Of a stretch of 64,000 bases of DNA, positions 8,778 to 18,856 are shown in pieces. A program made the translations under genes and the position numbers. Position 1 is the first letter of the stretch. Every line of letters starts with the position of its first letter. Under the pieces are notes generated by a model, which saw nothing but the letters and a program-made list of their open reading frames with translations, did no database searches and had not been told where the DNA came from. Source of the stretch: an uncultured Alphaproteobacteria bacterium (lineage in GTDB: Bacteria; Pseudomonadota; Alphaproteobacteria; SMXQ01); assembly GCA_963732875.1 (NCBI GenBank), contig CAVTBD010000001.1:20780-84779 (forward strand), written 5' to 3'.

Positions 8778-9140
8778 TTACGCGGCCTGAAGCGCCGCGC
8801 GGGCCTGTTCCACGATGGCCGTAAACGCCGCCGGATCGCGCGCGGCGATGTCGGCGAGCACCTTGCGGTCGAGCTCGATGCCCGAACGCTTGATGCCGTT
8901 CATCAGCTCCGAATAGGTGAGCCCGTTCTCGCGCGCGCCGGCATTGATGCGGCGGATCCACAGCGAGCGGAACTCGCGCTTCTTGGCCTTGCGGTCGCGG
9001 TAGGCGTAGCGCAGGCCCTTCTCGACCTTCTCGATGGCGATACGATAGCAGTCGCTGGCGCGACCGCGGTAGCCGGAGGCGAGATCGAGGATCTTCTTGT
9101 GGCGGGCGTGTGTGGTGACGCCCCTCTTGACGCGTGCCAT
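8778..9140 (-). CDS. rplT: 50S ribosomal protein L20
   Basis: [35 protein letters not shown]..., about 120 aa. Confidence 0.95.
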
Positions 9141-9151
9141 GGGTCTCTTCC

Positions 9152-9349
9152 TTAGGCGTAGGGGAGGAACTGCTTGATGATGTTGGCGTCGCCCTTGGCC
9201 AGGATGAAGGTGCCGCGTGCGGTACGCTTCATCTTCTGGGAGCGCTTGCGCAGGTTGTGGCGCTTGTAGGCCACGTTGCCGCGCACCTTGCCGGTGCCGG
9301 TGGTGCGGAAGCGCTTCTTGGCGCCGCTCTTGGACTTCAGCTTCGGCAT
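9152..9349 (-). CDS. rpmI: 50S ribosomal protein L35
   Basis: [42 protein letters not shown]..., 65 aa. Confidence 0.95.
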
Positions 9350-9583
9350 TGCCGGGAATCCTCGGGATTACGGTCGAAATACGGCCCGCCACCGGCCGGC
9401 CCCATGGCCGCCGGGCGGAGCGCAGGGTTATAGCGGGGACCGCCCCGGAATGCAAGGCCCCCCGGGCTGCCCAGGGCCACCCCGGGACGGCCGGGCCCCG
9501 GAATCCGCCGCCAAGGCTGTCCCGGCTCTCGACCCCGAATACATCTTGCGCTACAAGAACTTAGGAATCCTCGGGAATCCCGC

Positions 9584-11395
9584 ATGAAATCGTCCCTCCG
9601 TTCCGTCCCGGCGGTGGCGCGCGACGCGTTCCGCGCGCTGCGGCTCCGCTATACCTCCCTGCGCCGCACCGTGCGCAACTACGAGACCGGCCTGATCGCC
9701 TGCTGCGTGGTGGTGGGGGTCGTGGTCGGCCTCGTGACGGTCGGCCTGCGCGACCTCGTCTATTTCCTGCACCGGCTGGATTTCGCCCTGCCCGGCCACG
9801 CCTATCTCAGCGCCCAGACCAGCCTCGACCTCCTGCGGCTGGCCGTGGTGCCGGCGGCGGGCGGACTGTTGCTCGGGCTGTTGACCCTCGCCCTCCGGAA
9901 AATCCGGCCCAACGACATCGTCGATCCGGTCGAGGCCAACGCGCTCTACGGCGGCCAGATGTCGCTGCGCGACAGCATGCGGCTCACCGGCTACACGGTG
10001 GTGTCCAATGCCTGCGGCGCCTCGGTCGGTATGGAGGCCGGCTACAGCCAGCTCGGCGCCGGCATCTTCTCCGTGGTCGGGCGCTACTTCCACCTGCGCC
10101 GCGAGGACCAGCGCATGATGGTGACGGCGGGTGCCGCGGCGGCGATCTCGGCCGCCTTCAACGCGCCGCTGGCCGGCGCCTTCTACGGCTTCGAGCTGAT
10201 CCACGGCAGCTACACCACGCGGGCGCTCGCCCCGGTCACCGCCGCGTCGCTGGCGGGCGCGCTGGTGGTGCGCCTGCTCGGCACCGACCAGCCGCTGTTC
10301 GAGGTCGCCGGTCGCTTCGTGATCCCGCACTGGTACTACCTGCTGTTCGGGCTGCTCGGCATCGCCGCCGCCGGGCTCGGCATCCTCACCATGAAGAGCG
10401 CGACCTGGATCGAACGCCTGCTGCGCGCGACCCGCCTGCCCACCTGGCTGCGGCCCGCCGCGGGCGGTGTGATCCTGAGCCTGATCGCGCTCGGCTCGCC
10501 CCAGGTGCTCGGCAGCGGCCATGGCGCGATCCAGTGGCACCTCGACACCCAATGGACCTTCACCGCGCTGGCGCTCCTGCTCATGGGCAAGCTGGTGGCC
10601 TCGGCGGTCTCGCTCGGCGCCGGTTACCGCGGCGGCCTGTTCTCCTCATCGCTGTTCCTGGGCGCGCTGCTCGGCGCCACCTTCGTGCAGGCCATCGACC
10701 TCGCGCTGCCGTCGCTGGTGGACCAGCGTACCGTCTTCATGCTGGTCGGCATGGGCTCGGTCGGCGCGGCGATCATCGGCGCGCCCTTCACCATGGTGTT
10801 CCTGGTGCTGGAAGCGACCGGCAGCTTCCCGGTGACGCTCGGCATGCTGGTGGGCGTGGTGCTGGCCGCGACCATCGTGCGGCTCACCTTCGGCTATTCG
10901 TTCTCGACCTGGCGCTTCCACCTGCGCGGCCTGCCACTGCGCGGCGGCCACGACATCGGCTGGATCGCCGGCCTGACGGCCGGGCGCCTGATGCGCTCGG
11001 ACGCGAAGACCGTCCCGGCCGGCATGACCCTCGCCGGCCTGCGCCAGACGGTGCCGCTCGGCAGCAGGAAGTGGGCCTTCGCGGTGGACGATACCGGACG
11101 CTACGTCGGCATGATCGACATCGCCGCCGCCCACGACCACGACCTCGACGACGTCGCCGCCAACCTGATCGCGGCCGACCTCGCCACGGGGCGCAGCAGC
11201 TACATGCTGCCCGGCGACAACATCCGCACCATCCTTCAGCAGTTCGGCGACGCCCAGGCGGAGACCCTGCCGGTGCTGAGCTCGGAGGCCGAGCCGCGCA
11301 TCCTCGGCTATCTGACGGAGGCCTTCTGTCTCAAGCGCTATGCCCAGGAGCTGGAACGGCGTCGGCGCGACGAGCTCGGCATGGCCGAGCTCTAG
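9584..11395 (+). CDS. ClC-family voltage-gated anion channel/antiporter with C-terminal CBS domains; non-canonical selectivity-filter motifs
   Basis: GAAAAISAAFNAPLAGAFYGFELI is the ClC hallmark. The gating Glu is present in GASVGMEAG (canonical GREGP). The GSGIP serine motif is absent (region ...RPNDIVDPVEANALYGGQMS...). GxFxP reads GYRGGLFSSS. CBS-like tail (GRYVGMIDIAAAH...). Confidence 0.8.
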   Translation: MKSSLRSVPAVARDAFRALRLRYTSLRRTVRNYETGLIACCVVVGVVVGLVTVGLRDLVYFLHRLDFALPGHAYLSAQTSLDLLRLAVVPAAGGLLLGLLTLALRKIRPNDIVDPVEANALYGGQMSLRDSMRLTGYTVVSNACGASVGMEAGYSQLGAGIFSVVGRYFHLRREDQRMMVTAGAAAAISAAFNAPLAGAFYGFELIHGSYTTRALAPVTAASLAGALVVRLLGTDQPLFEVAGRFVIPHWYYLLFGLLGIAAAGLGILTMKSATWIERLLRATRLPTWLRPAAGGVILSLIALGSPQVLGSGHGAIQWHLDTQWTFTALALLLMGKLVASAVSLGAGYRGGLFSSSLFLGALLGATFVQAIDLALPSLVDQRTVFMLVGMGSVGAAIIGAPFTMVFLVLEATGSFPVTLGMLVGVVLAATIVRLTFGYSFSTWRFHLRGLPLRGGHDIGWIAGLTAGRLMRSDAKTVPAGMTLAGLRQTVPLGSRKWAFAVDDTGRYVGMIDIAAAHDHDLDDVAANLIAADLATGRSSYMLPGDNIRTILQQFGDAQAETLPVLSSEAEPRILGYLTEAFCLKRYAQELERRRRDELGMAEL

Positions 11396-11412
11396 CCTCA
11401 CGCCATCTTCCG

Positions 11413-13176
11413 TCAGTAGACGTCGCGCACGTAGCGACCGCTCGCCACCATCTGGTCGACCTCGACCGCGGCGGCGGCGTCCGACATGCCGCCCTCGCGG
11501 GCGACGATGGCGCGCAGCGCCCGGTCCACATCCTTGGCCATGCGGCTCGCGTCGCCGCACACGTAGAAATGCGCGCCCCCGGCGAGCCAGTTCCACAGGG
11601 CGGCGGCGTTCTCGGCCATGCGGTGCTGGACGTAGAGCTTTTCCTTGCCGTCGCGCGAGAACGCGAGGTCGAGGCGCGTGAGCGTGCCGTCGGCGAGGAA
11701 GCCCTCGAGTTCCTCACGATAGAGAAAGTCGGTGGCGCGATGACGGTCGCCGAACAACAGCCAGGCCGGACCGGGGACGCCCGCCGCGCGGCGCTCCTCG
11801 AGGAAGGCGCGGAACGGCGCGATGCCGGTGCCGGGACCGACCATGATGACCGGCGTCGCCGGATCGGCTGGCAGGCGGAAGCGCCCGTTGCGCTGGACGT
11901 AGACCCGGACCGGGCCGGCGCCGGCGCGATCGGCGAGGTAGGTCGAGCCGATGCCGACGCGGTCGCGCCCGTGGCTCGCGTAGCGCACCGCGGCGACGGT
12001 GAGATGGACTTCGCCCGGGTGCGCGCGCGGGCTCGACGAGATCGAGTAGAGCCGGGGCGCGAGACGCGGCAGGATCGCCACCAGGTCCTGGGGCTGGGCG
12101 AGCACGCCGGGATAGCGCAGCACCAGGTCGATCACGTCGCGGCCGTAGAGCCAGTCCGCGAGGTCGGCGCTGCGCTCGGGCGCGAGCAGGGCCGAGAGCG
12201 TGGCGTCGCCCGCGCGCGCGGCGAACTTGATGACGGTCGGCTGGGTCAGGCGCCCGATCGAGAGCCGACGCGCGAGCGCCGCGCCGAGCGGCAGGGTGCC
12301 GTCGAGCGTCACCCGGGCATCCGGGTCAAAGCCGGCCGCGGCGAGCAGCGCCTCCACCATCGCGGGCGGATTTTCGACCACCACGCCGAGCGCGTCGCCG
12401 GGCTCGTAGGCGACGCCGGTGCCCTCCAGCGACAGCGCGATGTGGCGCACGTCCTTGTCGGAACCGGGCGCGGTGAGCGGGCGGTTGTCGATCACCGGCG
12501 CCGCCACCGGGTTGGCGCGCGTGCCGGGCGCGTCTTCCGGTTCTTCGTCGGGGACCGCCACCACGGCAGGCGGCCCTTTATCGGCGACACCGGCCTCGGC
12601 GGCAAACGTCTCCAGCATGGCGTCGCGCCACGGCGCGAACGGCGGGGCGGGGTCGCCATCGACGTCGACACGGGCGGCGAGCCGCCGGGCGCCGAGCGCG
12701 GCGAAACGTTGGTCGAGGAACGCGCCGTAGCCGCAGAACTGCAGGTAGTTGGAATCGCCGAGCGCCAGCAACGCATAGGACAGGCCCGCGAGCGGCGCGC
12801 CTTCGGCGGCGGCAAGATCGTCGCTCACGCGGCGCGCGCTGTCGGGCGGCTCGCCTTCGCCGTGGGTGGCGGCAATCACCACCGCGTGGCCAAGCGCGCC
12901 GAGCTCTTCCAGGGTCAGCGTGCCGATGTCGCGCGCCGTGGCGTCGAAGCCGCGCCCCTTCGCCGCGCGGGCGAACTTGCGCGCGAGCCCCTCGGCGGTG
13001 CCGGTCTGGGAGGCGTAGAGCACCGCGAGCGGGACCGCCGGCGCGGGCGCCTCCGCCGCCTCCGGCGGCGTCAGCAGCGCCGCGAGGAAACCCGACAGCC
13101 AGGCACGCTGCTCGCGCGTGAACGGCGCGTCGTCGGGGATCAGCGGGATTTCGCGGAGCGGCGCGGGCACGGCCAC
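11413..13176 (-). CDS. Sulfite/nitrite reductase [NADPH] flavoprotein component (CysJ-like diflavin reductase)
   Basis: Flavodoxin domain (LAVLYASQTGTAEGLA...), FAD site RLYSISSSP and NADPH site GPGTGIAPFRAF. A ~45-aa N-terminal extension carries the motif APFTREQRAWLSGFLAALL. Confidence 0.8.
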   Translation of the reverse strand: MAVPAPLREIPLIPDDAPFTREQRAWLSGFLAALLTPPEAAEAPAPAVPLAVLYASQTGTAEGLARKFARAAKGRGFDATARDIGTLTLEELGALGHAVVIAATHGEGEPPDSARRVSDDLAAAEGAPLAGLSYALLALGDSNYLQFCGYGAFLDQRFAALGARRLAARVDVDGDPAPPFAPWRDAMLETFAAEAGVADKGPPAVVAVPDEEPEDAPGTRANPVAAPVIDNRPLTAPGSDKDVRHIALSLEGTGVAYEPGDALGVVVENPPAMVEALLAAAGFDPDARVTLDGTLPLGAALARRLSIGRLTQPTVIKFAARAGDATLSALLAPERSADLADWLYGRDVIDLVLRYPGVLAQPQDLVAILPRLAPRLYSISSSPRAHPGEVHLTVAAVRYASHGRDRVGIGSTYLADRAGAGPVRVYVQRNGRFRLPADPATPVIMVGPGTGIAPFRAFLEERRAAGVPGPAWLLFGDRHRATDFLYREELEGFLADGTLTRLDLAFSRDGKEKLYVQHRMAENAAALWNWLAGGAHFYVCGDASRMAKDVDRALRAIVAREGGMSDAAAAVEVDQMVASGRYVRDVY

Positions 13177-13177
13177 G

Positions 13178-14956
13178 TCACGAGGCCTCGCCGGTGGCGA
13201 TGGCGGCCAGTGCCGCCGCGTCCTGGCGGCCCGCGAAGGCGGCGAAGTCCTCGCCCTGGCGGCGCCCGTCCTTGTAGGCGCCGAGCAGGCGCGCGAGCGC
13301 CGCCGGCACCGCGTCGGCGGGCAGGCCCTTGGCGATCTCGCGCGCGAGCGCGCGTCCCTGGTCGGAGCCGCCGCCGAGATAAAGATGGTAGCCCTCGACG
13401 GTGCCGCCCTCGCCCGCCACCTGCACGCCGAGCAGCCCGATGTCGCCGATGTAGTGCTGGGCGCAGGAATTGGGGCAGCCGGTGAGGTGGATGTTGACCG
13501 GGCTGTCGAGCGCGACCGCGCGGTCGAGGTGCTTGCGGATGGCGAGCGCGTGGCCCTTGGTGTCGGTCATGGCGAACTTGCAGCCGGTGTTGCCGGTGCA
13601 GGCCACCAGCCCGGCCGAGGCCGAGCTCGCGCGGATGTCGAAGCCCATCGCCCGGACCTTGCGCTCGACCGTGGAGAGCTTTTCGTCGGGCACGTCGGGC
13701 AGGATCACGTTCTGCCACACGGTCAGGCGCAGCTCGCCCGAGCCGCACTCCTCGGCGAGCTCGGCGATCTTGTCCATCTGGGCCGCCGTCATGCGTCCCA
13801 CGGGAATCGCGATGCCGACGTAGCTCAGGCCCGGCGCCTTCTGGGTATAGACACCGACATGGCCGTGGCGGATGACGGCGCGCGGCGGCAAACAATCCGT
13901 GAGAGCGAGCCTTCGCAGCGGAAAGGCGAGCCTGGCCTCGGTCGCGGCCAGGAACGCGTCCATGCCGATGCGGTCGATCAGGAAGCGCAGGCGCGCCTTC
14001 TTGCGGTCGGTGCGGTCGCCCCGGTCGGCGAACACCCGGATCATGGCGGCGGCGGCGGCGACGCATTCCTCGGGCGCAACGATGATCCCCGCGTCCTCGG
14101 CGAAGAAACGGTGGCCGGTGATGCCCCCCAGCATCACGCGGAACCACACGCCGGGCGCGATGCCCTTGCCGTCGGGCACGCGCACCGCCTGGAAGCCGAT
14201 GTCGTTGGTGTCGGACACCACGCTGACGCTGCCGCCCGAATCGAACGCCACGTTGAACTTGCGCGGCAGGCCGAACAGGTCGCGGTTGTTGGCGAGGTAG
14301 AACTGCAGCCCCTGGGCGAGCGGCCGCACGTCGTAGAGCTCGGCCGGGTCGATGCCGGACGTCGGCGTCGCGGTGATGTTGCGCACGTTGTCGGCGCCGG
14401 CCCCGCGCGAGGTGAGCCCGGCGTTGGACAGCGCCATCAGCACGTTGACGATGTCGTGCGGCGCGAATTCGCGCAGCTGCACGTTGCCGCGCGTGGTCAC
14501 GTCGCCGTAGTCGTTGCCCCAGCGGCGCGCGATCTCGGCGAGCGCGCGCATCTGCACGGCCGTGATTATGTTTCCCGGCACGCGCACGCGCACCATGAAC
14601 GAGTCCTGCGCCGGCGCTACGTAGAACAGGCCGTGGAACTTGAAGCGGAACACGTCGCCGCCCTCGGGCGGGGTATCGGTGGCGGCGTGGTGCAGGATCT
14701 TGTCCCAGATGTCGAGCGGGTTGTGCTCGAGCTTGAGGCGCTCCTCGCGGGTGAGCTCGTCGAGCGGCACGCCGAACGCGGTCTTGCCCTCGGGCGGGCC
14801 CGCGAGGTTGGCGGGCGCTGCCCCCGGCTCGTGGGTCAGGCGCCCGTCGGCGCCCTCCCCCACGAACGGCACCATCCCGCGGGCGCGCAGGCCCGCCGCG
14901 TAGCCTTCCAGGTACTCCTTCTGCGCCTTGGTGAAGGGCACGATCTCGGCACTCAT
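13178..14956 (-). CDS. Siroheme/[4Fe-4S] nitrite/sulfite reductase hemoprotein (CysI/NirA-like)
   Basis: 592 aa with the Cys cluster ...CTGNTGCKFA...TGCPNSCAQ, two NiR/SiR ferredoxin-like half-domains and the N-terminal motif VPFTKAQKEYLEGYAAGL. Confidence 0.8.
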   Translation of the reverse strand: MSAEIVPFTKAQKEYLEGYAAGLRARGMVPFVGEGADGRLTHEPGAAPANLAGPPEGKTAFGVPLDELTREERLKLEHNPLDIWDKILHHAATDTPPEGGDVFRFKFHGLFYVAPAQDSFMVRVRVPGNIITAVQMRALAEIARRWGNDYGDVTTRGNVQLREFAPHDIVNVLMALSNAGLTSRGAGADNVRNITATPTSGIDPAELYDVRPLAQGLQFYLANNRDLFGLPRKFNVAFDSGGSVSVVSDTNDIGFQAVRVPDGKGIAPGVWFRVMLGGITGHRFFAEDAGIIVAPEECVAAAAAMIRVFADRGDRTDRKKARLRFLIDRIGMDAFLAATEARLAFPLRRLALTDCLPPRAVIRHGHVGVYTQKAPGLSYVGIAIPVGRMTAAQMDKIAELAEECGSGELRLTVWQNVILPDVPDEKLSTVERKVRAMGFDIRASSASAGLVACTGNTGCKFAMTDTKGHALAIRKHLDRAVALDSPVNIHLTGCPNSCAQHYIGDIGLLGVQVAGEGGTVEGYHLYLGGGSDQGRALAREIAKGLPADAVPAALARLLGAYKDGRRQGEDFAAFAGRQDAAALAAIATGEAS

Positions 14957-14987
14957 GGCGTGCCTCCGCCGTTCATGCCGGTTGCCG

Positions 14988-15836
14988 TCATTCGGCCGGG
15001 GACATCCCTGCGGGCACCGCCGGCGCCGGCTGCGGCTTGACCTTGGGCGCCATGCCGCGATGGGTCAGGTAGATGGCGAAGCCGGTGAAGGTGAAGCCGC
15101 CGACGATGTTGCCGAGCGTCACCGGGATCTGGTTCCACAGCCACCAGTCGCCGAAGCCGACCTTGGCGCCGAGCAGCATCCCGGTCGGGATCACGAACAT
15201 GTTGACCACCGAATGCTCGAAGCCTTGCGCGAAGAACACCACGATCGGCAGCCACGCGGCGGCGATCTTGCCGACCGTGGAGGCCGACGTCATGCCCATG
15301 ACGACGCCGAGGCACACCATCCAGTTGCACAGGATCGCCTTGACGAAGCAGGTCACCAGGCCGGCCATGCCGAGATGCTCGTAGCCCAGCGTCTTGGCCT
15401 GCGCGATGGCGATGATTTTGGCCGCGATCGGGTCGGGCGCGCCCGCCGTGCCCATCTTGGAGATGGCGATGGCGTAGAGCCCGGCGTAGATCAGCGCGCC
15501 GATCAGGTTGCCGAGAAACACCCAGCTCCAGTTGACGAGCACCTGGAACGGGCTCGCCTTGCCCTCCAGCCAGGCGAGCGGCACCAGGGCGAAGCTGCCG
15601 GTGACCAGCTCGAGGCCGAGCAGCACGATCATCACGAAGCCTACCGGGAAGATCACGGCGCCGACGATCGGCTGGTCAGTCTGCACGATGGCGCCGATGG
15701 CGAGGCTGGTGGCGAACCCGAGGATCGCGCCCGACAGTGCGCCGCGGATGAGCAGGTCGCGCACCGGCAGGCCGATCTTCTTGATGCCGGCATCGACCAT
15801 CGTGTCGGCGACCTCGTTTGGCTTCATGTAGTCCAT
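14988..15836 (-). CDS. Formate/nitrite transporter (FNT) family channel; NirC/HSC/FocA-like
   Basis: MDYMKPNEVADT... with FNT signature regions (FPVGFVMIVLLGLELVTGSF, CNWMVCLGV). First gene of the FNT-cysI-cysJ-like operon. Confidence 0.8.
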   Translation of the reverse strand: MDYMKPNEVADTMVDAGIKKIGLPVRDLLIRGALSGAILGFATSLAIGAIVQTDQPIVGAVIFPVGFVMIVLLGLELVTGSFALVPLAWLEGKASPFQVLVNWSWVFLGNLIGALIYAGLYAIAISKMGTAGAPDPIAAKIIAIAQAKTLGYEHLGMAGLVTCFVKAILCNWMVCLGVVMGMTSASTVGKIAAAWLPIVVFFAQGFEHSVVNMFVIPTGMLLGAKVGFGDWWLWNQIPVTLGNIVGGFTFTGFAIYLTHRGMAPKVKPQPAPAVPAGMSPAE

Positions 15837-16118
15837 AACACCCCTCCCGCGGGTGGCAGCGCGCCCGCGTCGCATGAGACAGGAACAGTCCTGCCTTCAG
15901 GTATTCAAGGGGCGTGCCAGTTCACGGAGGGGACGGTGGCGCGCGGACGGGCGCGGGCGCGCCCGGCATAAACGCGATCCGCGGCGCGGGAACTGCCTCA
16001 AAGCGTGCAGCACCCCGTCAAAATTTGTGCAGTGCCCCGAAACGACGGCGCCGGCCCCAAGGGACCGGCGCTGCGAATGCGGAGCGGGAACGCGGGCGCG
16101 TCAGAACCTGTTTAGTTT

Positions 16119-16167
16119 AGAGCAGGATCACGGTTCAGATTGAGTCAACCTGAACCGACCCTGCTCT
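16119..16167. repeat. About 50-bp nested palindromic repeat element (copy 1 of 2), overlapping the infC stop
   Basis: AGAGCAGGATCACGGTTCAGATTGAGTCAACCTGAACCGACCCTGCTCT. A near-identical copy is at 29241-29290. Confidence 0.7.
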
Positions 16168-16702
16168 AGCGCGGCGCGATCACCATGGTCATCTGGCGGC
16201 CTTCCATCTTGGGGATCGCCTCGACCTTGGCCTTCTCGTCCATCTCCTGGCGCACCTTGTTGAGCACCGCGAGGCCGAGCTCCTGATGCAGGAACTCGCG
16301 GCCGCGGAAGCGGATCGTCACCTTGACCTTGTCGCCCTCGTCCAGGAACTTGTGGATCGCCCTCAGCTTGACGTCGTAGTCGTGCTGGTCGATGCCGGGG
16401 CGCATCTTGATTTCCTTGACGTCGATGGTCTTCTGCTTCTTGCGCGCCTCGTTGGCCTTCTTCTGGGCCTGGTACTTGAACTTGCCGTAGTCGAGGATCT
16501 TGCAGACCGGCGGATCGGCGCTGGGGGAGACCTCGACCAGGTCGAGGCCGGCGGCTTCGGCCTTGGCAAGCGCCTGGGCGATGGTCACGACGCCGAGCAT
16601 TTCGCCGTCTTCGCCGACGAGGCGCACGGACGGGACGTGGATCGCTTCGTTCACGCGGGGGCCGCCCTTCGAGGGCGGCTGGGGGGAGGTGGGCCTGGCT
16701 AT
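16166..16702 (-). CDS. infC: Translation initiation factor IF-3, probable non-AUG (AUA) start
   Basis: IF-3 homology ([26 protein letters not shown]...[15 protein letters not shown]) extends upstream of the GTG at 16654 with no in-frame ATG. An ATA codon (16700-16702) is preceded by GGAGAG at -8. IF-3 autoregulation through a rare start codon is established knowledge. Confidence 0.8.
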
Positions 16703-16881: not shown

Positions 16882-18856
16882 TTACCCACTGGTCGCGGTT
16901 TGTGAAGGCACCTGCGCCTCTTCGGCAAGTCTAGCGCGCGCTTCATCGAGCGCAAGCGATTCTTGCGCGGTCGAGCCGAGACGGCGCACCGCGACCGTGC
17001 GCTGCTCGGCCTCGCGCCGGCCGATCGCGAGGATCACCGGCACTTTGGCGAGGGAATGCTGGCGCACCTTGTAGCCGATCTTTTCGTTGGTGAGGTCGAG
17101 CTCGACCCGGAGCCCGGCCGCGCGCAAGGCGTGCGCCACCTCGCGGGCATAGGAATCGCCGTCGTTGGTGATGGTGGCGATGACCACCTGCACCGGCGCG
17201 AGCCACAGCGGGAACGCGCCGGCGTAGTGCTCCACCAGGATGCCGATGAAGCGCTCGAACGAGCCCAGGATGGCGCGGTGCAGCATCACCGGGCGGTGGC
17301 GTCCGCCGTCCTCGCCGGTATAGGCGGCGTCGAGCCGCTCGGGCAGCACGAAGTCCACCTGCAGCGTGCCGCACTGCCAGTCGCGGCCGATGGCGTCGCG
17401 CAGCACGAACTCGAGCTTGGGCCCGTAGAACGCGCCCTCGCCCGGGTTGAGGATGGTCTCGAGCCCGGCGGCGGCGACCGCCTCCTTGAGCGCGCCCTCG
17501 GCGCGGTCCCAGATGTCGTCGCTGCCGGCGCGCGTCTCGGGCCGGTCGGAGAACTTCACCACGACTTCCGCAAAGCCGAAGTCCTGGTAGACGGCTGAGC
17601 AGCAGGTCGCAGAACGCCTTGGTCTCGGACGTGATCTGGTCCTCGGTGCAGAAGATATGGGCGTCGTCCTGGGTGAAGGCACGCACGCGCATGATGCCGT
17701 GCAGCGCGCCCGAGGGCTCGTAGCGGTGGCACGAGCCGAACTCGGCCATGCGCAGCGGCAGGTCGCGGTAGCTCTTGATGCCCTGGCGGAAGATCTGCAC
17801 GTGGCACGGGCAGTTCATCGGCTTGATGGCGAGCACGCGCTCGCCTTCGCTCTTCTTCGCTTCCTCGGAGCGCGGCGAGGCCGTGAACATGGCGTCGCCG
17901 AACTTCTCCCAGTGGCCCGACTGCTCCCACAGCACGCGGTCCACCAGCATCGGCGTCTTGACCTCGACGTAGCCCGAGGCTTCGAGCCGGCCGCGGATGT
18001 AGTTCTCGACCGTGCGATAGAGCGTCCAGCCCTTGGGGTGCCAGAACACGCTGCCGACCGCGAGCTCCTGGACGTGGAACAGGTCCATCTCGCGCCCCAA
18101 ACGACGATGGTCGCGGCGCTCGGCCTCCTCCAGCCGGTGCAGGTAGTCGGCCAGGTCCTTGTCGCTGGCCCAGGCGGTGCCGTAGATGCGCTGCAGCATC
18201 TCGTTGCGCGAATCGCCGCGCCAGTAGGCGCCGGCCAGCTTCATCAGCTTGAACGCCTTGCCGAGCTTGCCGGTGGACGGCAGGTGCGGCCCGCGGCACA
18301 GGTCGATGAAGTCGCCCTGGCGGTAGAGCGTCACGTCCTCGGCGGCCGGGATCGATTCGATGATCTCGGCCTTGTAGTGCTCGCCCTGGTCCTTGAAGAA
18401 CTGGACCGCCCGGTCGCGGTTCCACACCTCGCGTTCGATCCCCTCGTCGCGCGCGACGATCTCCTTCATGCGCGCCTCGATCTTCTCGAGGTCCTCGGGC
18501 GTGAACGGCTCGGCGCGCGAGAAGTCGTAGTAGAAGCCGTTCTCGATGGCGGGACCGATGGTGACCTGGGTCTCGGGATAGAGCTCCTTGACCGCCTCGG
18601 CCATGACATGGGCCGCGTCGTGGCGGATCAGCTCCAGCGCCTCGAGCCCGCTCTTGGGCGTGACGATCTCGATGCGCGCGTCGGCCTCGATCGGGCGCGC
18701 GAGGTCCCGCATCACCCCGTCGACCTTGACGGCAAGCGCGGCCTTGGCGAGGCCCGGACCGATGGCGGCCGCGACCTCGGCGCCGGTGGTCCCGCGCGCG
18801 ACCTTGCGCGAGGAGCCGTCGGGCAGCGTCAGCGTGATCTCAGCCATATCGTCCAA
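16882..18856 (-). CDS. thrS: Threonine--tRNA ligase, with an apparent frameshift near 17600-17610
   Basis: N-terminal ~400 aa in ORF 16943..18856 (TGS, editing and catalytic motifs ...[26 protein letters not shown]). C-terminal anticodon-binding domain in ORF 16882..17682 (...[14 protein letters not shown]...). Junction ...[11 protein letters not shown]|AVYQDFGF. Confidence 0.85.

Follow-up and report, generated by a model that had tools for sequence, protein, structure and literature searches.

What might a ClC protein carry if its pore lacks most of the residues that bind chloride in the solved exchangers? The question is raised by an open reading frame in the stretch of 64,000 nucleotides analysed here (the window). 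A preliminary description took its product for an H+-coupled exchanger of nitrite, nitrate, fluoride, bisulfide or sulfite and tied it to a convergent CysJ-like/NirA/FNT operon. We find that the gene encodes a genuine member of the ClC-type anion transporter family. It is part of a large alphaproteobacterial branch of ClC proteins that is as yet uncharacterised and in which, judged by alignment, most chloride-binding residues are swapped in a conserved way. The reading we favour, at a probability of about 0.5, is a functional homodimeric CLC-CBS protein that would transport anions in a housekeeping role, gated by Glu_ex and with its coupling or selectivity altered.

The CLC-CBS protein and its clade

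The gene and the regions of the protein discussed below are located as follows.

9584-11395, plus strand: CLC-CBS gene, 603 aa and a stop codon (ORF, Pfam PF00654, identical public protein P0001, AF2 model, CLC fold)
9905-9955, plus strand: helix-D region that replaces GSGIPE, residues 108-124, RPNDIVDPVEANALYGG (alignments)
10028-10051, plus strand: start of helix F, GMEAGYSQ, residues 149-156 (alignments)
10157-10198, plus strand: F192 through FYGFEL, the latter at residues 200-205 (alignments; roles from PMC7274781 and PMC7253180)
10520-10522, plus strand: H313, a clade-specific His at the position of CLC-ec1 F317 (alignments)
10628-10651, plus strand: start of helix N, RGGLFSSS, residues 349-356 (alignments)
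10889-10918, plus strand: start of helix R, FGYSFSTWRF, residues 436-445 (alignments; helix R runs from residue 440 in the model)
10946-11377, plus strand: C-terminal CBS pair, residues ~455-598 (sub-threshold Pfam CBS, homologues with PF00571, profile matches, secondary structure of the model)

The reading frame has a GC3 of 0.95, and a protein identical to its product (P0001) is found in public databases. The Pfam Voltage_CLC family (PF00654) matches with 238 bits, aligning residues 94-432 to model positions 2-345 of 346. In Foldseek, the AF2 model (pLDDT 93.9) aligns with CLC-ec1 and SynCLC at target-normalised TM-scores of 0.77-0.84, in keeping with the antiparallel-repeat CLC fold of about 18 helices. 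The Pfam score, the alignments, the model and the fold match bear out the identification as an unambiguous ClC protein. The tandem C-terminal CBS-like domains are supported by a less direct route: the Pfam CBS score of 18.5 bits is below the cut-off of 24, homologues carry PF00571, the clade profile matches the CBS proteins 2yzq and 9e6q, and the C-terminal region of the model contains two beta-alpha-beta-beta-alpha units, fitting a CBS pair.

Residue equivalences were taken from pairwise and profile alignments to solved structures, and residue roles are given at CLC-ec1 numbering. The alignments exclude a mis-registration, as canonical GSGIP and GREGP are not recovered. That all three selectivity motifs are non-canonical, as previously described, holds, with a qualification for the third. 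GSGIP with its Ser_cen is absent and GREGP reads GMEAG; the third motif, GIFAP in CLC-ec1 and GLFSS here, retains the core G-G-x-F and differs only in the two trailing residues. In the helix-D region, G106 is replaced by P, S107 (Ser_cen) by N110, G108 by D and P110 by V113; D114 aligns to E111 and E117 to E113. Helix D of the model begins only at P115, and its N-terminal stretch is predicted as coil. At the start of helix F, the gating glutamate is kept as E151 (= E148, nt 10034-10036), and R147, G149, P150 and T151 are replaced by M, A, G and Y. GMEAG (residues 149-153, nt 10028-10042) keeps only the G and E of GREGP or GKEGP; its sequence had been read correctly before and placed 3 nt off.

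The string GAAAAISAAFNAPLAGAFYGFELI is located at residues 183-206. In this region Phe_ex is kept as F192 and E202 as E204, Y201 occupies the F199 position and L205 that of the Glu_in E203. An assignment of Y201 to the aromatic slide was considered and rejected: the slide for the protonated Glu_ex consists of F190 and F357 (PMC7274781), both of which are kept, and F199 is a separate neighbouring residue. In helix N (GLFSS at residues 351-355, nt 10634-10648), R349 is found at the P353 position, Phe_cen is kept as F353, and A358 and P359 are both replaced by S. In helix R, S441 aligns to the Tyr_cen Y445, and Y438 is a clade-specific Tyr three residues before it. The preliminary description had thus overlooked further canonical losses, namely E203 to L205 at Glu_in, Y445 to S441 at Tyr_cen and K131 to L134.

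By alignment, the outer half of the CLC machinery is intact (E151, F192, F353, G-G-x-F, E204 and E117). Clade-conserved alternatives take the place of the residues that normally build the chloride site at its centre and inner side and support it electrostatically: Ser_cen, Tyr_cen, K131/D278, R147 and Glu_in are lost, and R349, H313, Y154, Y201 and Y438 are gained. With none of Ser_cen, Tyr_cen, K131 and R147 in place, there may be no canonical chloride site, and the substrate may be a different one.

The motif deviations are the near-invariant signature of a discrete clade, which comprises at least 54 clusters at 50% identity and whose named members are all alphaproteobacterial. Across 120 homologues with at least 55% identity and 70 clade members down to ~30% identity, the deviations vary little or not at all, and their conservation is far beyond chance. 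Glu_ex, described as retained from the single sequence, is present in all 70 clade members and Phe_cen F353 in 68 of them; also kept are both Phe residues of the aromatic slide, the equivalents of E202 and E113, and G-G-x-F where helix N starts. The clade motif of helix D is xVDP(I/V)EANALxGG, with D114, E117, N119, G123 and G124 invariant and the Ser_cen-equivalent position variable (R, T, G, A and others). The R147 position is M or L (64/70), the residue after E-A in the GMEAG-type motif is Gly or Ala, and the trailing xP of GxFxP is S-S or F-A. Glu_in is replaced by L, I or V next to the invariant E202 equivalent, and Tyr_cen by S, A or T. The conserved gains are Arg349 (97%), His313, Tyr154, Tyr201 and Tyr438. 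The altered filter is under purifying selection, which makes an altered transport phenotype a reasonable expectation.

None of the 49 clade members scored reaches a curated NCBIfam cut-off, and literature on Rhizobium tropici sycA, on unusual CLC homologues and on sulfate exporters with sulfatases identified no characterised member. What is known of the CLC mechanism comes from a few proteins, all of them with the Ser/Tyr/Glu chloride site. A widespread and strongly conserved clade that discards Ser_cen, Tyr_cen, K131/D278, R147 and Glu_in together, and holds other residues conserved instead, is a natural experiment on this mechanism. One characterised member would tell whether coupling and chloride selectivity outlast the canonical site, or whether another substrate class is carried, as with CLC-F. 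It would also correct the blanket database label 'chloride channel protein' in many Bradyrhizobium, Paracoccus, Azospirillum, Ensifer and Rhizobium genomes.

Genomic context and substrate candidates

The region upstream of the gene bears on fluoride, one of the substrates initially suggested.

9350-9583, no strand: divergent intergenic region from the start of rpmI (9349, minus strand) to the start of the CLC gene, without a riboswitch

With Rfam at gathering score, the whole window contains neither a fluoride riboswitch nor any other family upstream of the CLC gene. At E <= 10, positions 9100-9700 give only noise and no RF01734-type match. The loci of nine relatives have no riboswitch at gathering score either. 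A genome scan with the single CLC protein as query gave only nine close relatives. No match to the sigma-70 consensus was found in 9350-9583. The CBS domains also argue against fluoride, as does the clade profile, which scores 219 bits on the canonical ClC 1kpl versus 105 bits on the CLC-F protein 6d0j. CLC-F proteins have a conserved Asn or Met at Ser_cen, paired with Thr or Val after GREG (PMC4113899). N110 is an Asn as in some CLC-F, yet the position is variable in the clade, and GMEAG lacks the Arg, unlike GREG(T/V). With 603 aa, a CBS pair and no riboswitch in addition, the protein does not fit CLC-F. Nor does it fit a nitrate CLC of the AtCLCa type: the Pro at Ser_cen (GPGIP) is absent, the equivalent position being Asn here and variable in the clade with no conserved Pro, and Glu_in is Leu.

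The stop codon of the CLC gene lies 17 bp from the convergent CysJ-like gene, whose operon codes for a reductase of the NirA family, a flavoprotein and a transporter of the formate/nitrite family. The two genes are convergent and therefore not co-transcribed. In the closest relative (82% identity), the CLC gene is located directly between rpmI and infC, without the reductase operon. We searched related loci with the window's neighbours by tblastn (13, then 96 loci) and found NirA, CysJ and FNT near the CLC gene in none of about 100. The functional tie to a nitrite/sulfite-reductase operon that had been proposed is not supported by this result.

De novo clustering of neighbours in 96 loci found no conserved neighbour. 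The most frequent is a generic ABC ATPase (17 loci, at variable distance), and every other family occurs in at most 8 of the 96. A Pfam census of 69 putative operon partners gave 68 different families, each present in 4 loci at most. The clade genes stand alone or are appended to many unrelated catabolic or uptake operons, and this variable context fits a generic role in the homeostasis of charge, pH or anions. A clade CLC gene follows sulfatase or FGE genes by 2-64 bp on the same strand in three plasmid operons that are unrelated to one another:

Paracoccus operon: choX-betC-CLC
Falsirhodobacter operon: sulfatase-sulfatase-CLC
Bradyrhizobium operon: arylsulfatase-FGE-CLC

The CLC proteins of these operons are only 38-44% identical to one another, and the presence of the adjacency in three operons independently hints that the protein has a more specific role in some lineages at least.

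Proposed mechanism and competing readings

We propose that a small anion would still move through the usual pathway, gated by the protonation of E151. In characterised CLCs, H+ pumping tolerates a non-titratable Glu_in, and the inner water path is shaped by the dynamics of E202 and the bulky F199 (PMC7253180). Lower side-chain volume at Y445 weakens coupling, and small side chains at this position produce a Cl- leak (PMC2151619). Glu_in and Tyr_cen may be substituted by Y438 and/or by Y201, which takes the place of F199 along the inner water path; H+ coupling would therefore probably be present, yet looser or of a stoichiometry other than the 2:1 of CLC-ec1. The initial prediction of an H+-coupled exchanger had disregarded the Leu at Glu_in and the Ser or Ala at Tyr_cen, and is not supported in that form. 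The preference for polyatomic anions is tuned at the R147/K210 position (PMC3243520), and the anion preference of the protein is probably shifted, for polyatomic anions above all. The protein would serve as an electrical shunt or as a valve for anions, chloride being the most likely, and not as a dedicated partner of the adjacent reductase operon.

The protein could instead be an ordinary, tight 2:1 Cl-/H+ exchanger in which Y438 replaces Tyr_cen, Y201 acts as a polar relay, R349 takes over from R147/K131 and the motif differences are structurally neutral. The invariance of Glu_ex, Phe_ex, Phe_cen, the E202 and E113 equivalents and G-G-x-F agrees with this, as do the housekeeping-like context and the persistence of coupling in homologues without a titratable Glu_in (PMC7253180); the clade-invariance of the gained residues suggests compensation. 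We nevertheless consider it rather unlikely, given that the N-terminus of helix D, the source of the Ser_cen and S_int amides, is predicted as coil with its Gly residues replaced, that the Ser_cen equivalent varies across the clade, and that CLC-ec1 becomes uncoupled when the residue at Tyr_cen is small (PMC2151619). Another reading is an uncoupled, channel-like conductance for anions: in such a prokaryotic CLC channel, the inner gate of Ser_cen and Tyr_cen would be missing and Glu_ex would be the sole gate. It would account for the small or variable residues at both positions, for the Leu at Glu_in, comparable to the Val of channel-type CLCs, and is in line with the Cl- leak of small Y445 side chains. 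An engineered E148A/Y445A mutant, said to be from Jayaram et al. 2008, is reportedly channel-like. Eukaryotic CLC channels keep Ser_cen and Tyr_cen, so their loss does not define a channel. The aromatic slide and the counterparts of E113 and E202 are strictly conserved, the gate may be rebuilt by two new Tyr residues, and a channel is in our view unlikely.

Two further readings start from the neighbouring genes. The pore may be wider and lined with hydroxyl, Arg and His groups, accommodating a tetrahedral anion, and the protein an oxyanion exporter or channel with sulfate from cytoplasmic sulfatases or sulfur oxidation as the first candidate. The three sulfatase operons point this way (enrichment at the adjacent position, Fisher p = 0.027 in a post hoc test), as do plasmids of Ensifer and Rhizobium, where the CLC gene adjoins TauE/YeeE/MBL-hydrolase/ArsR or FAD-oxidoreductase/DUF2892 clusters; the Arg, His, Tyr and Ser residues gained at predicted pore-proximal positions would suit such a substrate. 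Against this, the adjacency occurs in 3 of 105 loci, and sulfatases make up 2 of the 69 partners in the unbiased census. Members of a sulfur-gene panel (TauE, YeeE, MBL hydrolase, ArsR, SQR-like oxidoreductase, DUF2892, BetC and FGE) were each found in their source locus only, the exceptions being the three sulfatase operons and a single metagenome contig. A threonate operon contains a CLC with 74% identity to a sulfatase-linked one, and Bradyrhizobium chromosomes keep the CLC (92-100% identity) but have lost the arylsulfatase, with FGE decayed to 173 aa, to 87 aa or completely. To our knowledge, sulfate is not carried by canonical CLCs. We regard oxyanion transport as quite improbable, and extend the same doubt to a new functional CLC class, in which a pore without Ser_cen, Tyr_cen, K131 and R147, and with a conserved Arg, a His, three Tyr and a Ser-rich helix N, would carry an oxyanion that canonical CLCs exclude, sulfate being the leading candidate. 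If true, the substrates of the CLC family would come to include divalent or tetrahedral anions, and a bacterial route of sulfate efflux would be identified, for export after sulfatase or sulfur-oxidation reactions. The H+-coupled exchanger tied to the convergent operon can draw on the 17 bp spacing and on the gene content of that operon. Synteny has already largely refuted it: among about 105 loci, the adjacency is seen in this genome alone, and the absence of co-transcription, of a fluoride riboswitch and of CLC-F or nitrate-type signatures leaves it very improbable. The Glu_ex-gated housekeeping transporter with altered coupling or selectivity is the reading we retain.

Relation to known CLC systems

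Among solved structures, the best sequence matches are the prokaryotic Cl-/H+ exchangers CLC-ec1/StClC (ClcA) and SynCLC (sll0855), which have the same fold. The 603-aa protein shares Glu_ex, Q153, F190, E202, E113, G146 and G354-G355-x-F357 with them. Unlike them, it has a CBS pair and lacks Ser_cen, G106, G108, P110, K131/D278, R147, G149, P150, Glu_in, P359 and Tyr_cen. On the NCBIfam ClcA model, which has a cut-off of 350, the protein reaches 130 bits. The best curated model is the ClcB-like NF002505/PRK01862, of equal length and with the same TM-plus-CBS layout (residues 19-588 against model positions 6-572 of 577). Its cut-off of 482 is missed by the protein, with 257.5 bits, and by all 49 clade members. 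We know of no experimental characterisation of the NF002505 family.

CmCLC (PDB 3org), which keeps Ser_cen and Tyr_cen, is a distant match only (1.7e-40 with the profile). It also has a CBS pair, and with Thr at Glu_in and Trp at the R147 position it is still a coupled exchanger (PMC7253180, PMC3243520). CLC-F proteins such as Eca (PDB 6d0j) belong to the same superfamily, keep Glu_ex, lack the canonical Ser and have a residue other than Glu at Glu_in (PMC4113899, PMC7253180); they differ in their chains of ~420 aa (range 400-420), their link to riboswitches and the absence of CBS domains. AtCLCa is a weak match (2e-06 pairwise, 4e-35 with the profile). The plant subgroup II proteins AtCLCe and AtCLCf, termed 'prokaryotic-type' CLCs, also combine a non-canonical filter with a kept Glu_ex, and their proton Glu is debated (PMC8839641; bioRxiv 10.1101/2021.04.07.438841). 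Their motifs, SSKSSQ / GPEGPSVD / AVAGCFF, set them apart, a distinction drawn from the published motifs. At the Glu_in position, the Leu of the protein resembles the Val of the passively conducting CLC channels (ClC-0/1/2/K); eukaryotic channels are distant profile matches.

The sister clade consists of proteobacterial CLC-CBS proteins with 27-35% identity and the same architecture, whose motifs read GxADVIEA or GHGVPEV / GREGPxVH / GGGVFSPSLF. They likewise have Val or Ile in place of Glu_in and His or Gln in place of Ser_cen, and about half have Phe for Tyr_cen. The sister clade lacks R349, H313, Y201 and Y438, with Tyr at the H313 position, and keeps R147, G149, P150, P359 and F199.

The CLC protein and its selectivity filter

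The gene studied here is the sole long ORF of coding-type composition in its region. The gene and the filter segments of its product (the query, P0001) are as follows; equivalences are to CLC-ec1.

9584-11395, + strand: CLC gene, 603 aa, GC3 0.95
9905-9955, residues 108-124: RPNDIVDPVEANALYGG, with N110-D-I-V-D114 on S107-G-I-P-E111
10028-10042, residues 149-153: GMEAG on GREGP, with E151 on the gating Glu E148
10634-10648, residues 351-355: GLFSS on GIFAP

Public databases already hold an identical protein. Its description as a CLC is confirmed by a Pfam Voltage_CLC match of 238 bits and by an AlphaFold2 model (alignment of 93 sequences, mean pLDDT 93.9) whose fold agrees with those of CLC-ec1 and SynCLC (target-normalised TM-scores 0.77-0.84). 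The CBS pair occupies the C-terminal 150 residues and scores slightly under the Pfam threshold (18.5 vs 24 bits). It is supported by PF00571 in homologues, by CBS proteins matched by the clade profile and by two beta-alpha-beta-beta-alpha units in the model.

Motifs were equated using pairwise phmmer alignments to solved CLCs and a profile alignment. All motif strings quoted in the preliminary description are found in the query, and the alignments give the altered strings at the GSGIP, GREGP and GxFxP positions rather than mis-registered canonical ones. Both types of alignment place E151 on E148, so the gating Glu is retained as claimed. The statement that all three motifs are non-canonical holds for motifs 1 and 2. 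It is half right for motif 3, because the G-G-x-F start of helix N is kept. Further changes in the profile alignment had been missed: the internal proton Glu E203 is replaced by Leu205, the central Tyr Y445 by Ser441, and the buried Lys131 and its partner Asp278 by Leu134 and Arg278. G146, Q153, F190 (F192 in the query), F357 (F353), E202 (E204) and E113 (E117) are kept, and E111 remains acidic as D114.

A conserved clade signature

The 120 best database homologues (at least 55% identity) show little or no variation at the altered and retained positions. When 1.84 billion cluster representatives were searched exhaustively, 101 full-length matches were obtained; on alignment these split sharply into the query's own branch (group A) and a sister clade (group B). 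Group A counts no fewer than 54 clusters (50% identity level), the most distant being about 30% identical to the query.

Group A motifs: xVDP(I/V)EANALxGG; G(M/L)EA(G/A)(Y/F)xQ; FYxFE(L); RGGLF(S/F)xSL; FGYSFxTWRF
Group B motifs: G(V)ADVIEA or GHGVPEV; GREGPxVH; GGGVFSPSLF

Among the positions shared by 90% or more of group A and by 15% or less of group B are N119, A152 (at G149), Y201 (F199), H313 (F317) and R349 (P353), as well as L352, F436, Y438 (K442), R444 and H446. According to a recent survey of diverse prokaryotic CLCs, G106, G108, P150 and P359 rank with the most conserved filter positions (bioRxiv 10.64898/2026.03.26.714534); group A has substitutions at all four. Judged from these alignments, the changes are the signature of a clade and not of a single aberrant gene. 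Its named members are alphaproteobacteria (Paracoccaceae, Parvibaculum, Rhizomicrobium, Azospirillum, Zavarzinia, Ensifer, Rhizobium, Neorhizobium, Bradyrhizobium, Methylobacterium, Sphingomonas and Entomobacter), and three clade motif patterns were confirmed in at least 566 stretches of metagenome contigs.

The first turn of helix D in CLC-ec1 bears Ser_cen (S107) and the amides of the S_int site. This turn is predicted to be coil in the query model, and the helix restarts at a D114-P115-x-E117 capping box. In CLCs, Glu_ex (E148) is both the pore gate and the H+ carrier. The clade retains the full set of Glu_ex, E202, E113 and the aromatic slide used by protonated Glu_ex, F190 and F357 (PMC7274781). 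It is devoid of Ser_cen, Glu_in (E203), K131/D278, Tyr_cen (Y445) and R147. H+/Cl- coupling drops roughly with side-chain volume at Y445, and a Cl- leak appears (PMC2151619). The basic residue before Glu_ex (R147; K210 in CLC-5) tunes the preference for polyatomic anions, and is Trp in CmCLC (PMC3243520). New in the clade are an Arg immediately preceding the helix-N G-G-x-F, a His where CLC-ec1 has F317, and two Tyr residues, one in place of F199 and the other three residues upstream of the former Tyr_cen. E151 would still gate anion passage, and the central and inner anion site may be rebuilt from other side chains. H+ coupling is probably kept, yet looser or different, and the anion preference is probably shifted.

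Genomic context of the clade

The following features surround the CLC gene in the window.

9152-9349, - strand: rpmI, near side of the gap
11413-13176, - strand: CysJ-like flavoprotein (NF004859, 467 bits, above cut-off)
13178-14956, - strand: NirA-family sirohaem reductase (NF007126, 799 bits vs cut-off 523)
14988-15875, - strand: formate/nitrite-family transporter (FNT), in the three-gene operon 11413-15875, convergent with the CLC gene
16166-16654, - strand: infC, far side of the gap
16882-18856, - strand: thrS, as two overlapping ORFs in different frames

Operon 11413-15875 looks like a module for NAD(P)H-linked assimilatory reduction of nitrite or sulfite that includes an anion channel of its own. 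The earlier argument from this neighbouring operon to the CLC substrate is refuted: none of 13 genome or chromid loci, and none of 96 loci of which 80 are metagenome contigs, has a CysJ-like, NirA or FNT gene less than about 8 kb from the CLC. Most tellingly, the closest relative (P0002, 82% identity) has no reductase operon beside it at its locus, L099, where the CLC gene is divergent from rplT-rpmI and convergent with infC.

The usually contiguous thrS-infC-rpmI-rplT-pheS-pheT order is broken between infC and rpmI in the window (9152-16654). The gap holds the CLC gene and the FNT-NirA-CysJ-like operon here, and the CLC alone in L099; the CLC therefore entered the gap first, and the reductase block was a separate event in the window's genome. 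Since these insertions cut rpmI off from infC, rpmI-rplT must have its own promoter, predicted in 9350-9583. The two thrS frames join near nt 17,620-17,650. thrS is essential and the frameshift involves a single base; an error of assembly or sequencing is therefore more probable than a pseudogene.

De novo clustering of every ORF within 6 kb of the CLC in the 96 loci gave no neighbour family present in more than 17; the most frequent, the generic ABC ATPase, varies in its distance from the CLC and in its orientation. The 69 neighbours that lie on the same strand no more than 150 bp away belong to 68 different Pfam families, each found in four loci at most. In annotated plasmids and chromids, the CLC gene either stands by itself or sits at the end of, or inside, unrelated operons.

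Paracoccus seriniphilus: L-threonate operon
Thioclava electrotropha (L105 35-7259) and Paracoccus versutus (L106 1-7290), plasmids: one common operon of GntR, amino-acid ABC transporter, class IV (D-amino-acid) aminotransferase, CLC and proC-like reductase, with 3-44 bp between CLC and neighbours
Azospirillum: adjoins aqpZ
Sphingomonas: adjoins MscS, Na+/H+ antiporter and SLC13 permease
Ensifer and Rhizobium plasmids (L017 3076-5765, 11975-12175; L101 12516-14855; L018 1876-5682): near ArsR/SmtB regulators and ArsR-controlled sulfur-oxidation or sulfite genes (SQR-like FAD oxidoreductase, DUF2892, TIGR01244 sulfurtransferase, TauE/SafE, YeeE/YedE, MBL-fold hydrolase); the FAD oxidoreductase-DUF2892 pair recurs in two plasmids (71% and 64% identity)
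Paracoccus aminovorans (L015 4426-7800, same strand): choX-betC-CLC, betC being choline sulfatase
Falsirhodobacter algicola (L102 3766-8482, same strand, 2-bp gap): sulfatase-sulfatase-CLC, with TTT transporter
Bradyrhizobium sp. 195 (L103 4333-8746, same strand, 2-bp gap): arylsulfatase-FGE-CLC

The last three are unrelated plasmid operons in which the CLC gene lies 2-64 bp downstream of a sulfatase or FGE gene, and their CLCs share only 38-44% identity. Among 105 adjacent genes, 3 are sulfatase or FGE genes, compared with 3 among some 750 genes elsewhere in the flanks (Fisher p = 0.027, post hoc), an excess in independent operons that suggests sulfate handling. A dedicated role of this kind is improbable, however: the Falsirhodobacter CLC is 74% identical to that of the P. 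seriniphilus threonate operon, and the unbiased Pfam census finds sulfatase in only 2 of 69 cases. Bradyrhizobium chromosomes keep the CLC at 92-100% identity across species, but the arylsulfatase is gone and the upstream FGE is reduced (173 aa in L109 6478-8791; 87 aa in L111 6720-8776; absent from L110 6972-8762). A generic shunt or homeostasis role would fit the promiscuous gene context.

Comparison with known CLC types

Measured against the features that define the ClcA type, the curated ClcB-like family, the CLC-F type and nitrate-type CLCs, the query matches none of these groups. None of 49 clade members reaches a curated NCBIfam cut-off, the best model being 'ClcB-like' (about 260 bits vs 482), and source records name all members generically as 'chloride channel protein'. 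A nitrate-type CLC needs Pro at Ser_cen. The profile alignment places no Pro there in the query, and the nitrate type was rejected.

The fluoride candidate is not supported. No fluoride riboswitch or other Rfam family was found in 9100-9700 even at E <= 10, anywhere near the CLC gene or in the loci of nine relatives. In CLC-F, Asn or Met stands in for the canonical Ser, together with a Thr or Val following GREG (PMC4113899). The query shares the Asn, but differs in its helix-F motif and in having CBS domains; solved CLC-F chains are about 420 aa. Across the clade the Ser_cen position is variable (R, T, G, A and others), and with the clade profile canonical ClC reaches 219 bits and CLC-F 105.

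Rhizobium tropici has four CLC paralogues, sycA among them (PMC5936775); in the searchable literature, we found no paper on this clade or on the transport properties of any member. The clade is real and conserved; transport of an anion other than chloride by its members is hypothetical.

The nearest relatives, group B (P0191-P0270), are equally uncharacterised proteobacterial CLC-CBS proteins that still have GREGP and GxFSP. Their Ser_cen is His or Gln, their Glu_in is Val or Ile, and Phe replaces Tyr_cen in about half of the members. Among bacterial CLCs with CBS domains, sites that differ from the textbook chloride site are therefore widespread.
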